A DNA stretch of 64,000 bases from an uncultured Spirochaetota bacterium (GTDB lineage Bacteria > Spirochaetota > Spirochaetia > SZUA-6 > CAVTHK01). Position numbers and translations under genes: made by a program. Below are positions 6,943 to 10,459 of the stretch, piece by piece; the first letter of the stretch is position 1, and every line of letters begins with the position of its first letter. The notes under the pieces are model-generated. The model worked only from the letters and a program-made list of their open reading frames with translations. It was not told the DNA's origin and searched no databases. Location: positions 224,001-288,000 of the forward strand of contig CAVTHK010000013.1 of NCBI GenBank assembly GCA_963734495.1, written 5' to 3'.

Positions 6943-7905
6943 ATGCACCTGAGCCGCAGCGGGGTCACGCTGGTGCTGCTTCTGACGTGCTTTGCAGCAC
7001 GAGCCGAATCATACAAGCTTTCGGTCTATTACGAGGGCCCGCCCGCGGTCGCGAGAGACATCGAGCGAGCCTTCGAGACGTTTCGCGGTGACGTGCTCTC
7101 CATCGTTCCCTTTTCCGCAGACACCGAGGCGGATATGGACGCCGTGGCAGCCAAGGCGGACGTCGTCTGGGGAGGAGGCGAAGCGCTGCATGGCCGCCTG
7201 CAGGCTGCGGGCCGCGTGCGACCGTATCGCTCGTCCGAGCTGGGTTCGATAGCGGCGCCCTACTGGAAGGCCTCGCCTTTCGACGTCGTGTCGGGCCTCG
7301 AATGCATGGTCATAGCCTACGCCCCGGACCGGCTCGCGGGAGCCGCGCCCCCGGCGCGCTGGCGCGACCTCCTGGACCCGCGCTGGCGGGGACGCGTGGC
7401 GATGCGCAACCCGGCATCCGGCCCGGATTCGCTCGCCTCGGCCTCGGCGATCCTGCATTCCTTTGAATGGTCCTGGTTCGAGTCGCTTGCCGCGCAGCGG
7501 CCCCTGATCGCGCCCACCGACGACGATGCGCTCGCGCGGCTTATTTCGGGCGACGCGCTGGTGGCCGTGGTGCCCTACCACGCCGTCACCCGGGCTCGCG
7601 CCTCGCTCGCCGTGGTATGGCCCACCGACGGGGCGATCGTCACACCGCGCCCCATCGCCATCCTCCAGCAGGACAAGCGGCCGCAGATGATGACGGGCTT
7701 CGCGGAGCAGCTCGTGGACTTCGTTCTCTCGGTCGAGGGACAGACCATCGGGCGGCGGAACGGCCTCTACCCGACGCGCGTGGACGTCCTGCCCCCGCCG
7801 GGAGCTCCCGCCGTCACGCTGCCTGCCAGCGGCGAACCGGCGTGGCTGGAAGCACAGCCCGCCGACCTCGGCGACCGTCTGCGCCGCCTGTTCGGCAGCC
7901 TCTGA
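6943..7905 (+). CDS. ABC substrate-binding protein (AfuA/FutA iron or thiamine type)
   Basis: Signal peptide, ADVVWGGG, PARWRDLLDPRWRGRVAM, DFVLSVEGQ. Confidence 0.75.
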   Translation: MHLSRSGVTLVLLLTCFAARAESYKLSVYYEGPPAVARDIERAFETFRGDVLSIVPFSADTEADMDAVAAKADVVWGGGEALHGRLQAAGRVRPYRSSELGSIAAPYWKASPFDVVSGLECMVIAYAPDRLAGAAPPARWRDLLDPRWRGRVAMRNPASGPDSLASASAILHSFEWSWFESLAAQRPLIAPTDDDALARLISGDALVAVVPYHAVTRARASLAVVWPTDGAIVTPRPIAILQQDKRPQMMTGFAEQLVDFVLSVEGQTIGRRNGLYPTRVDVLPPPGAPAVTLPASGEPAWLEAQPADLGDRLRRLFGSL

Positions 7906-7939
7906 GGCCGGCCCCGCGCGGCCGCCCGCGCCGGGACCG

Positions 7940-8794
7940 TCAATCCGCCTTCGTGTCCCCCCGCGCGTAATCCGCGAGCCTCGCGATCTCGGCCGGCCAT
8001 CGATCCTCGTCCGGCGTTTCGAGGATCAGGGGGATCCCGTCCGTGCGCGGGTCGCTCATCAGGCAGCGGAACGCCCCCCAGCCGATCTCGCCGTCTCCGA
8101 GCGGCGCGTGGCGGTCCACGCGGCTGCCGAGAGCGGTCTGCGAGTCGTTGAGGTGCATGCCCCTGAGGCGGCGCAGGCCGACGATGCGGTCCAGCTCCGA
8201 CAGGATTCGCTCGCAGCCCGCGCGCAGGTCGTAGCCGCCGGCAAAGGCGTGCGCGGTGTCGAGGCAGATGCCGATCCGATCCCCGTGTACCACACGCTCG
8301 AGCAGGCGGGCCAACTGCTCGAACGTCCGTCCGACGTTGGTGCCCTGGCCCGCGGTGATCTCCACGACCGCGGTCACGCCCTCGGTCCGATCGAGCCCGA
8401 AGTCGATCGATTCGGCGACGAGATCCAGGCACGCCTCGTCGCTCATCAGCCCCTTGTGGGCGCCCGGGTGAAAGTTCAGCATCGTGAGGCCCAGCTCTTC
8501 GCAGCGGCGCAGCTCGTCGACGAAGGCTTCGCGCGATTTCGCGAGGATCTTCGAGTCCGGAGCGCCGAGGTTGATCAGGTAGCTGTCGTGCGGGAGGATG
8601 CTTTCCGGACCGTAGCCGGCTTCGCTGCAATTGCCGCGAAACGCCGCGATCGTCTTCGCGCTCAGCGGCGACGAGCGCCAGGCGAGCTGGTTGCGGGTGA
8701 ACAGCGCGAACCCCGTGGCTCCGATAGCGCGGGCGCGCAGAGGCGCGTTCTCGACGCCGCCTTCGGTCGACACGTGCGGCCCGATGAGCTTCAC
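7940..8794 (-). CDS. nfo: Endonuclease IV
   Basis: IGPHVS, HDSYLINL, NFHPG, EITAGQG, CLDTAH, HLNDS, DRHAPLG, ILETP. Confidence 0.95.
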   Translation of the reverse strand: MKLIGPHVSTEGGVENAPLRARAIGATGFALFTRNQLAWRSSPLSAKTIAAFRGNCSEAGYGPESILPHDSYLINLGAPDSKILAKSREAFVDELRRCEELGLTMLNFHPGAHKGLMSDEACLDLVAESIDFGLDRTEGVTAVVEITAGQGTNVGRTFEQLARLLERVVHGDRIGICLDTAHAFAGGYDLRAGCERILSELDRIVGLRRLRGMHLNDSQTALGSRVDRHAPLGDGEIGWGAFRCLMSDPRTDGIPLILETPDEDRWPAEIARLADYARGDTKAD

Positions 8795-8848
8795 GAGCGC
8801 GCATCATGAGCGGCGGCACTTCGGGAGTCAAGCGTGCGGGACGGAAGG

Positions 8849-8983
8849 AAAAAAAGAGAGAGGGGAAAGGCAAAAAAGCGGGGGTAGTAACACTACCCCC
8901 ATTTGCTGCAGCAAGGGAAACCGGGCAAGGAAAGGAGGTGAAACTTGCCCGCAGGGGAAAACCTTCAGGCTCCCCTCTCTCTT
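8849..8983 (-). ncRNA. Candidate structured sRNA with an anti-SD loop
   Basis: 13-bp closing stem plus U-tail and two internal perfect hairpins; one loop reads UUUCACCUCCUUUC. Confidence 0.6.
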
Positions 8984-9016
8984 CAACTGGACAAACAACC
9001 GAGTGATGGGAAGGTT

Positions 9017-9067
9017 ACAAAAGGAAAGGGCCGCGCCCTCCGACGGTCGGTCGAGAGGGTGCGGCCC
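9017..9067 (-). terminator. Terminator of 9092-9787
   Basis: GGGCCGCGCCCTC...GAGGGTGCGGCCC stem, followed by TTTCCTTTTG on the minus strand. Confidence 0.75.
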
Positions 9068-9091
9068 CGCGTCCGCGGAAGCAGGGTTCGC

Positions 9092-9787
9092 TTACTCCAG
9101 CTTGGTGACCTTCAAATTGTCAAACGCGACCGCCAGGCTGTTGGTCCTCAACCCGATGTACTTGCCCGACTTGAGGGGGATGTCCGCCTTGAAGCGGTAG
9201 AAGAAGTTCAGGTCGAGCGGATCGTAGACCCGGATCTCCCCGGCATTGGTGTCGACGACGATCTTGACCGGAATCGTGATATTGAAAGCCTCGGGTCTCA
9301 TGTAGCTCGCCGGCAGCGGCAGGTTGTTGCCCGCCTTCATGATGTCACGCGGCGGGTACAGCCCCATCTGCGTGGGTCCCGTGCTCGCGTAGGCCTGGGC
9401 GAAGACGCCCGGCCCGTAGGCCGCTTTGTCCCAGGTGAGCCACAGCAGGCCCGAAGTCCCATCGCCCCAGCTGCGCCCCTTGCTCGGGTCCGAGGCCATG
9501 ATGTGGAAGCCGAACCCGCCGTAGTCGTCCTGGAAGCCGTCGACGTACTGGATGTCGAACTCGTACTGCATGACGCCCGACTGCTCGCAGGGGATGTTCA
9601 GGACCGACATCGTTTCCTTGGTGTCGGTCTGGTAGAGTTTGCCATCCTTGATCTGCCAATTGCCGGCCGCCACTATCCAGCCCGCGGGGAGCGGCCCGCT
9701 CGAGAAGCTGTTGATCAGCACGGTCTGACCCGAAACCATGCCGGCTGCCAGCAGGAAGGCCAATAGCCATACGAAGAGCCTTTTCAT
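9092..9787 (-). CDS. Secreted beta-sandwich (ConA-like/DUF1080-like) protein
   Basis: Signal peptide, GNWQIKDGKLYQ, GKYIGLRT...FDNLKVT. GGAGG SD. Confidence 0.7.
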   Translation of the reverse strand: MKRLFVWLLAFLLAAGMVSGQTVLINSFSSGPLPAGWIVAAGNWQIKDGKLYQTDTKETMSVLNIPCEQSGVMQYEFDIQYVDGFQDDYGGFGFHIMASDPSKGRSWGDGTSGLLWLTWDKAAYGPGVFAQAYASTGPTQMGLYPPRDIMKAGNNLPLPASYMRPEAFNITIPVKIVVDTNAGEIRVYDPLDLNFFYRFKADIPLKSGKYIGLRTNSLAVAFDNLKVTKLE

Positions 9788-9853
9788 CGATCCATCCTCC
9801 CGTCCGACTGAGTTGGTTTATCCTGAATCCGGGTCATTATGGACCCGCCATTT

Positions 9854-10459
9854 TCAGCCGTCAAGTTTTTTTTGCTTGTGGAGCAAGCCGATCAGGTAGG
9901 TCTCGGTCGATGCCTTGCGGCTCGCGGGGGGCTTGAACGCCCGGGCCTTCTCGTAGCTCCCTCTCATCAGGTCGAGAAGCCGCCGCTCCTCGCCTCCCTG
10001 CAGGATCTTCACCACCAGGTGGCCGCCCGGGGCGAGATGCGAGTCGGCGAGCTCGATCGCCCGCTCGGCGAGCGCCGCGGACGACGCCACGTCGGAGAGC
10101 CGCGTGCCGGTCGTCGACGGCGCCGCGTCGCTCAGCACCGTGTCGAACGGGCCGCGTTCCGCGAGCTGCGGACCGAGCGCGGAGGCGAGGATGTCGCCCT
10201 TGAGAAATGTCAGGCGGGCACCTCCTTCGCGCGTGACCGACGGGTCGAGATCCTGGAGGTCCACCGCCGTCACCGTCGCGGACCACTGCGTGAGCACGTA
10301 GCGGCACCAGCTTCCGGGCGCGGCCCCCAGGTCCAGCACGCGGCCCCCGCGCCGCACCACCGCAAATCGTCTCTGGATCTCCTCGAGCTTGAACACCGAT
10401 CGCGCCGGATAGCCGGCCTCGCGCGCCTTGCGCGTGTAGTGGTCCGCCCAACGGTTCAT
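9854..10459 (-). CDS. rlmE: 23S rRNA Um2552 methyltransferase RlmE/FtsJ
   Basis: DHYTRKAREAGYPARSVFKL, VLDLGAAPGSW, LSDAAP, KPPASR..STETY. Alternative start at 10471. Confidence 0.93.
   Translation of the reverse strand: MNRWADHYTRKAREAGYPARSVFKLEEIQRRFAVVRRGGRVLDLGAAPGSWCRYVLTQWSATVTAVDLQDLDPSVTREGGARLTFLKGDILASALGPQLAERGPFDTVLSDAAPSTTGTRLSDVASSAALAERAIELADSHLAPGGHLVVKILQGGEERRLLDLMRGSYEKARAFKPPASRKASTETYLIGLLHKQKKLDG

Follow-up and report, generated by a model that had tools for sequence, protein, structure and literature searches.

The stretch of DNA analysed here, hereafter called the window, comprises 64,000 nucleotides from an uncultured member of the Spirochaetota. Between two protein genes on its minus strand lies a short structured element that displays a copy of the anti-Shine-Dalgarno (anti-SD) sequence, the 3' end of 16S rRNA, in a hairpin loop. 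Such an element raises the question whether it is a gene in its own right, on which strand it is read, what switches it on, and what the loop is for. The features of the locus are listed below in minus-strand order.

9092-9787, minus strand: upstream ORF of 231 aa, no Pfam match
9023-9067, minus strand: terminator-like hairpin of the upstream ORF, ending a few bases ahead of TGTAAC
9014-9019, minus strand: -35 element TGTAAC of an ECF-type promoter; GTAAC is invariant in 16 of 16 aligned relatives
8993-8997, minus strand: -10 element TGTTT, 16 nt after TGTAAC; TGTT (8997-8994) is invariant across the 16-copy alignment
8872-8988, minus strand: predicted conserved small RNA (sRNA), ~115 nt, both ends predicted (unmapped)
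8913-8977, minus strand: P1, pairing 8968-8977 with 8913-8922 around P2 and P3 in the minimum-energy fold
8923-8950, minus strand: P3 hairpin, stem 8944-8950/8923-8929, loop 8930-8943 = UUUCACCUCCUUUC, the anti-SD copy
8903-8914, minus strand: linker with the palindrome TTGCTGCAGCAA; most relatives read AAAGCAGCAU, GCAGCA being the only part in common
8872-8900, minus strand: conserved intrinsic terminator, hairpin 8892-8900/8880-8888 (9 bp), then GCUUUUUU
8849-8866, minus strand: genus-specific distal arm; 8854-8866 pairs with 8971-8983, then a U-run
8803-8831, minus strand: nfo promoter, sigma-70-like (TTGACT-17-CATGAT), separate from the sRNA
7940-8794, minus strand: nfo, AP_endonuc_2 match at 5e-59

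The stems, loop and palindrome described in the initial annotation were all recovered where it had placed them. Read directly, 8854-8866 (AAGAGAGAGGGGA) and 8971-8983 are complementary throughout and form a perfect 13-bp stem. An 8-bp stem (8922-8929/8944-8951) closes the 14-nt loop 8930-8943, which reads UUUCACCUCCUUUC on the minus strand; a 9-bp stem occupies 8880-8888/8892-8900, and the palindrome TTGCTGCAGCAA lies at 8903-8914. A run of seven T (8855-8849, minus strand) follows the 13-bp stem, its first two T being paired within the stem. For the minus-strand segment 8840-8990 the folding energy is -61.7 kcal/mol (z -5.09), a value equalled by no sequence among 200 shuffles. The plus strand folds equally well (z -5.40), so the strand is not given by folding alone.

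The opposite strand therefore deserves consideration as a rival, in which a Shine-Dalgarno (SD) site (AAGGAGGTGA) and a TTG at 8945 would start a small ORF, or a leader similar to that of ylbH would be transcribed. The SD site is perfect and lies 4 nt ahead of the TTG, and the best sub-threshold Rfam match is the ylbH leader (RF00516) on the plus strand (8870-8954, 23.2 bits, E 0.011). This match overlaps the conserved core, yet it is on the wrong strand and far under the gathering score of 50, and its gene context and phylum differ too; hence it was rejected. Moreover, relatives differ in sequence and length beyond the TTG and conserve no reading frame there. The G-U wobbles found in P1, P2, and P3 turn into A-C mismatches if read from the plus strand, and both the promoter motif and the U-run fit only the minus strand. 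A terminator scan identified the hairpin 8901-8879 followed by CTTTTTT on the minus strand, which constitutes an intrinsic (Rho-independent) terminator. Wobbles, U-run, and terminator scan thus establish the minus strand, and together with the upstream promoter motif they bear out the free-standing minus-strand gene that had been proposed; a plus-strand feature is scarcely credible. At gathering scores, Rfam 15 returned no matches in the window and only rRNAs in 35 related loci (7 + 20 + 8), so the RNA is not one already described there.

Comparison with relatives redraws the boundaries of the element. The plan shared by the window's minus strand and its relatives starts with TGTAAC-N16-TGTT(T), ~10 nt, P1, and a variable hairpin P2. 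It continues with P3 (GGGCAAG/CUUGCCC) carrying the loop UUUCACCUCCUUUC, a U-rich linker, and the 3' arm of P1, and it ends with a linker, often AAAGCAGCAU, followed by the terminator hairpin and U-run. The counterpart of P1 in relatives is GAGGC/GCCUC, or GAGAC/GUCUC in family f2, where the palindrome linker is missing. The 13-bp outer stem, which had been taken as the closing helix of the RNA, is present only in the window and its congener G001 (L043, L044), and its 3' arm sits downstream of the conserved terminator; it is thus genus-specific and no part of the conserved RNA. Only transcripts that read through would be affected by the outer stem and the U-run behind it, which probably form a backup terminator or insulator before nfo. 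Accordingly, the ends and the ~135-nt size originally proposed give way to a conserved unit of ~115 nt that ends at the inner hairpin 8880-8900. Its 5' end is predicted at ~8985-8988 from promoter spacing (a start ~6-9 nt past TGTT) and its 3' end is placed in the U-run 8877-8872. The segment 8872-8988 folds at -47.7 kcal/mol (z -2.97), and the match to the covariance model described below covers 8873-9019, including the promoter.

The element had also been described as insulated from its neighbours. This holds for the terminator-like hairpin upstream (9023-9067) and for the sigma-70-like promoter of nfo, both of which were found. The position of the upstream terminator just before TGTAAC argues for the sRNA having its own promoter. 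As a separate observation, the -10 element of nfo ends only 8 nt short of the GTG start codon (8794-8831, minus strand), so that the nfo mRNA may be leaderless or nearly so.

Conservation of the element was followed at increasing distances. Within its own genome it is single-copy, which rules out a mobile element or repeat; paralogues, which the initial annotation had suggested seeking, are thus missing there. BLAST against 40 relatives showed a core of 28-30 nt that is identical across several families, and an exact 24-mer scan of the genomes of 185,579 species gave 16 records, all of them metagenome-assembled genomes of Spirochaetota/Spirochaetales/Spirochaetaceae. Of 92 genomes from the window's order (phylum Spirochaetota), 58 contain the element according to a covariance model built from 16 distinct copies; these carriers, mostly with one copy each, represent seven of the order's eight families: f1 (1/1), f2 (24/25), f3 (3/5), f4 (2/2), f5 (7/8), f6 (15/21), and f8 (5/5), with f7 (0/24) as the remaining one. 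In a 151-genome sample of the class, one convincing match (G119, E 2e-9) and three marginal ones were obtained outside the order.

The structure is retained along with the sequence. Over 31 distinct sequences, 97.7% of the cells at paired positions can pair and 16 of the 24 pairs show changes on both sides, in an alignment that was fitted to the model and therefore favours the structure. The observed pairing and covariation were matched by none of 500 shuffles, and in slid controls 36-57% of cells pair. Changes on both sides occur in four of the six pairs of P1 and in six of the nine pairs of the terminator helix, the latter with all cells paired. All cells of P3 are likewise paired, including 14 G-U or U-G wobbles. 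The loop is unchanged in 28 of the 31 copies, and ACCUCCUUU is present in all 31. One copy comes from another order (L057), where P3 has been rewritten as GGAUGGG/CCCAUUC around UUUUACCUCCUUUA and ACCUCCUUU is still retained. Hence the expectation that relatives would keep the loop and show compensatory changes was confirmed, and computation establishes that a genuine RNA gene, single-copy and conserved, is encoded on the minus strand.

The genomic surroundings of this gene vary considerably. Among 32 loci examined, 13 have a 23S or 5S rRNA gene upstream and three a tRNA-Ala(UGC) gene, in one case after 16S; neither rRNA nor tRNA genes occur near the remaining 16. In 12 of the 13 rRNA-linked loci, the rRNA gene is co-oriented and within ~110 nt (one 5S at 25 nt), and in the last it is 1.1 kb away. 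The element follows 23S by ~75-110 nt in six loci and follows 5S in another six. Two copies occur in family f4, of which one follows 5S by 12 nt (L128) and the other has the order ORF - sRNA - nfo, as in the window. In six f6 genomes (L027, L028, L030, L032, L033, L041), the sRNA promoter is located ~75-110 nt past 23S with no 5S between; 23S in these genomes is apparently not followed by a 5S gene. Across all copies, the neighbours include rRNA genes, EamA, Ldh, a hydrolase, and nfo, and such variety indicates a free-standing gene.

Such placement invites the view that the element is a trailer of rRNA operons, that is, a module for 3' processing or termination that arises from read-through and has no function in trans. 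The close, co-oriented positions past 23S and 5S speak for it. Against it, both 5S genes of the window's own genome are on other contigs, and the element there sits between the terminator of a protein gene and nfo. Moreover, no rRNA was near in any of 11 f2 loci examined, where no conserved neighbours were found, and the protein neighbours of four of these differ by Pfam; TGTAAC-N16-TGTT is retained in every context. The link to rRNA operons is therefore real and not obligatory, and a mere trailer is highly improbable. The same survey bears on a role in cis for nfo, in which transcription from the ECF-type promoter would run into nfo and the structure would tune or block read-through. In its favour, nfo serves in E. 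coli to repair oxidative damage, two families preserve the arrangement ORF - element - nfo (f1 in the window and G001, f4 in G004 and G011), and the window has tandem terminators. Most copies, however, do not adjoin nfo. Between the RNA and nfo stand a strong terminator and a sigma-70-like promoter belonging to nfo itself, and it is hard to see what an invariant loop would do in an attenuator. Thus, a leader or insulator of nfo is also very unlikely.

The promoter, which is the chief new finding, provides the clue to what switches the gene on. The initial annotation had noted a GTAAC-N17-GTT motif resembling ECF-sigma promoters; the resemblance proved sound, the precise form is TGTAAC-N16-TGTT, and the same motif fronts a conserved ECF sigma gene. 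A search of the 5.38-Mb genome (68% G+C) for the strict motif gave just two sites, one before the sRNA and one at C3:232372, which directly precedes a gene for a 173-aa protein (G000:C3:232403-232921, L064). This protein matches the Pfam models Sigma70_r2 (46.3 bits, cut-off 24), Sigma70_r4_2 (58.8, cut-off 25.7), and Sigma70_ECF (26.1, cut-off 21.1). In NCBIfam, only the ECF superfamily model TIGR02937 passes (89 against 42.9) and no equivalog cut-off is reached. Having sigma-70 regions 2 and 4 only, the protein belongs to the ECF (group 4) sigmas. A promoter matrix derived solely from other genera (60 promoters) ranks the sRNA site as the best in the genome (30.0 bits), with the sigma gene at 25.1 bits, and the third-best site (21.5 bits) falls within an AT-rich island. 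This island (G000:C3 ~600-45000), which also holds most of the weaker matrix matches, stands out in a 68% G+C genome and could represent foreign DNA or contamination from binning.

The pairing of sigma gene and motif extends well beyond this genome. An orthologue of the sigma (best match E < 2e-40) is present in 87 of the 92 genomes of the order, and TGTAAC-N16/17-TGTT lies just upstream in 25 of 30 fetched loci, the remaining five being without the canonical motif. Outside the order, nine of ten genomes tried have the orthologue, all nine with the motif. On the side of the sRNA, 30 of 31 copies have [T/C]GTAAC-N16-TGTT (29 TGTAAC, 2 CGTAAC). TGTAAC and TGTT are separated by 16 nt in 30 of these 31 copies, and by 16 or 17 nt in all 25 ECF promoters. 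As set out in PMC3817407, the majority of ECF sigmas drive transcription of their own gene, and this is the routine way of locating ECF promoters. The sRNA promoter is of the type found at the ECF sigma's own gene and is shared between the two, and dependence of the sRNA on this sigma in vivo would follow from the motifs.

Some further traits of the sigma locus are worth describing. A script located both the -10 element (TGTT) and the sigma start codon downstream of it in 35 loci, and in 32 of these only 3-7 nt separate the two, which suggests a leaderless sigma mRNA. The gene after sigma begins, by eye, with MCPD...LSAY.DGE...H...C..C in most orthologues; with this H-x3-C-x2-C motif it resembles a zinc-binding (zf-HC2) anti-sigma factor. 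In the window's own genome, the anti-sigma-like ORF is without the motif and stops at 60 codons; genuine decay, a frameshift, or a faulty assembly could account for this. Upstream of the sigma lies a gene with a conserved ...DTP.GT.W.. tail in many families (L116-L125, L068, L079, L084), which we take to be the C-terminus of cysteinyl-tRNA synthetase. This upstream gene order presumably resembles that of the Treponema pallidum rpoE locus, and on gene order the ECF sigma may be the orthologue of TP0092. The regulon of TP0092, the treponemal ECF sigma, was reportedly studied by Giacani and colleagues in 2013, and that study may report the sigma's binding motif.

What the loop is for can be approached through its sequence. 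The own 16S gene ends in ...GGATCACCTCCTTTCTATAG, and 12 nt of it (UCACCUCCUUUC) are identical to the loop, in agreement with the earlier claim that the loop repeats the 16S 3' end. Within the order, the whole 14-nt loop and the sequence of the P3 stem are near-invariant. This exceeds the 8-9 nt needed for a seed, and the RNA could have a protein partner. Beyond the order, where the covariance model gave G119 as its one convincing match, the wider family becomes visible only through a promoter-plus-motif pattern. The composite pattern TGTAAC-N16/17-TGTT-N30-60-ACCTCCTTT, which combines the promoter with ACCUCCUUU, matched 79 of 401 genomes of the class, against no matches for a reversed-pattern control. 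Outside the class it matched none of ~255 genomes, the control giving two matches. The bodies of these RNAs are unlike that of the window, typically 85-100 nt with one single-stranded ...GACCUCCUUUU, and relatives have one or two (A)CCUCCUUU motifs per RNA. A second CCUCC was read by eye in the terminator loop of 15 of 20 fetched variants. In a short form, found in genus g22 of f7 (closed genomes among them) and some f6 genomes, the anti-SD hairpin itself is the terminator.

Two variants may be mentioned separately. At L059:1501-1772 (G108), two small tandem units ~20 nt apart each have a TGTAAC-N16-TGTT promoter and their own terminator, one with ACACCUCCUUUU and the other with a UCUCUCCUU loop. 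A relaxed pattern (TGTAAC-N16/17-TGTT-N20-50-CCTCCT) run on ten further genomes gave one match, in G124, which folds into a 14-bp hairpin with the loop AAUCCUCCUUCGU followed by a terminator. The same pattern gave no matches in five other f41 genomes and one for the control, and G124 is a tentative case.

The constants across the class are the promoter and an exposed (A)CCUCCUU(U). As the body varies while promoter and motif stay fixed, it is the exposed CCUCCUU that selection retains: the part complementary to SD sites, and no more, persists through alterations in stems, flanks, and copy number, which speaks for pairing with ribosome-binding sites. This pattern is also what weighs on the reading of the loop as a mimic or decoy of the 16S tail, which would titrate a protein or RNase that recognises the tail (a maturation, hibernation, or cleavage factor) without pairing to any mRNA. 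The 12 nt common with the own 16S 3' end are in its favour, and so are the near-invariance of loop and P3 stem in genomes that range from AT-rich to 68% G+C and the frequent position directly 3' of an rRNA unit (23S or 5S at 13 of the 32 loci, tRNA-Ala at three). Outside the order, however, only (A)CCUCCUUU is retained, with the flanks GACC, UACC, AACC, and UUCC in place of the 16S sequence GAUCACC; the KH domain of Era, for example, needs GAUCA. Even within the order, the C before ACC is the position that varies (L005, L045, L057), and the motif, being enclosed in a loop, has no free 3' end. The loss of the 16S flanks thus weakens the tail-mimic reading that the initial annotation had offered as one of its two options, and we judge a decoy improbable.

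The explanation to which we incline, and which we hold to be probable if by no wide measure, is that the element encodes an ECF-driven, trans-acting sRNA of ~115 nt whose anti-SD loop blocks SD sites and so forms the noncoding repressor arm of the sigma response. Transcription would start from the TGTAAC-N16-TGTT promoter read by the conserved, autoregulated ECF sigma, whose gene is followed by that of the putative anti-sigma factor. With a promoter read by this sigma, the RNA would be made when the stress pathway fires. In the predicted molecule, P1 would enclose the variable P2 and the rigid P3, which shows UUUCACCUCCUUUC in its 14-nt loop, and an intrinsic terminator would follow. By pairing with AAAGGAGGU-type ribosome-binding sites, the loop would then bar the 30S subunit from target mRNAs. 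In this manner, a sigma that acts only as an activator would gain a repressor arm.

The choice of targets was explored by several routes. A crude target scan returned 1014 start regions with a loop pairing energy of <= -15 kcal/mol and no specific or conserved target; with so many candidates, the loop alone would confer little specificity. About 11 of the top 40 candidates have signal-peptide-like starts by eye, which is not clearly above the genome expectation. Complements of the extended loop occur in 53 places at <=2 mismatches, few of them before real ORFs. The start region of the anti-sigma gene was tried as a conserved target and rejected, its pairing (-5 to -18 kcal/mol) being no better than that of others. 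Hfq was not found in the genome, which is 83% complete. As to expression, a run search gave six RNA runs with 6-10% of the words of 7900-9900, four of which were examined as contigs. These four soil metatranscriptome contig sets (90-97% identity) cover 9069-9815 and 8564-8598, and contigs cannot show absence. None of their contigs lies on 8849-9019, which, these being contigs, carries no weight either way. The ORF 9092-9787 is the only substantially covered part of 7900-9900, apart from one 35-nt piece inside nfo.

A broader version of the same idea would make the RNA a class-wide throttle on translation: upon firing of the ECF sigma, abundant anti-SD RNA would compete with the 30S subunit for SD-led mRNAs in general. 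The leaderless sigma mRNA would escape this block and translation would shift to leaderless messages, while a position right after rRNA genes would tie the dose of the RNA to ribosome synthesis. We give this version only a slim chance. Unless it holds, the sRNA is a new family of an already known kind and not a new principle.

To RNAs already described, the spirochaete RNA shows both likeness and difference. A first group comprises the sRNAs of sigma-E responses, namely MicA, RybB, and MicL of E. coli (PMC4102768) and FoxI of Fusobacterium nucleatum, which likewise have a promoter of the ECF sigma gene type. FoxI, as sections of PMC9546586 describe, is the noncoding arm of a sigma-E response, binds across the SD site, and operates in a species without Hfq. 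The spirochaete RNA has no kinship with these RNAs in sequence or in Rfam, it belongs to a different phylum, and its sigma dependence is derived from motifs only. Furthermore, the known ones carry specific seeds for mRNAs of envelope proteins, whereas the seed here is literally the anti-SD, so its potential targets are very many.

A second group comprises the cuckoo or alpha-r14 RNAs of alphaproteobacteria, such as CcsR and NfeR1. They consist of one to several hairpins with ultraconserved anti-SD loops on stems that vary in a compensatory manner; they are induced by stress, and NfeR1 occludes ribosome-binding sites through its anti-SD loops, according to portions of PMC4615179 and PMC10746234. 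The spirochaete RNAs are alike in being class-wide with a variable body and a fixed loop motif. Cuckoo RNAs are defined by two to four adjacent hairpins with CCUCCUCCC loops in the relevant part of PMC4615179, whereas the window has one hairpin with UUUCACCUCCUUUC. In addition, the spirochaete motif is (C)ACCUCCUUU(C) and not CCUCCUCCC, the promoter is ECF-type, and there is neither homology nor an Rfam match. In Firmicutes, RNAIII and RsaE/RoxS pair with SD regions through C-rich or UCCC loops; a pyrimidine-rich loop is the common trait, and motifs, regulators, and phylum differ.

To our knowledge, few regulatory RNAs have been described in spirochaetes. A full-text literature search, which did not reach the TP0092 regulon study, found no such RNA described in spirochaetes, and no spirochaete RNA with a defined regulator that is conserved across many families. 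The present result offers a sigma with its putative anti-sigma, a promoter motif, and an sRNA built around the anti-SD. The sRNA appears to be the main target of the sigma other than its own gene, and in this genome the only one. The combination of a regulator, its promoter, and a conserved RNA effector should be of interest to those working on bacterial RNA as well as on spirochaetes. If the proposed mechanism is true, a third, distant phylum would join Proteobacteria and Fusobacteria in having ECF stress responses designed with a coding and a noncoding arm, and the spirochaete RNA would provide a natural test case for how an RNA that bears the ribosome's own docking sequence attains specificity.
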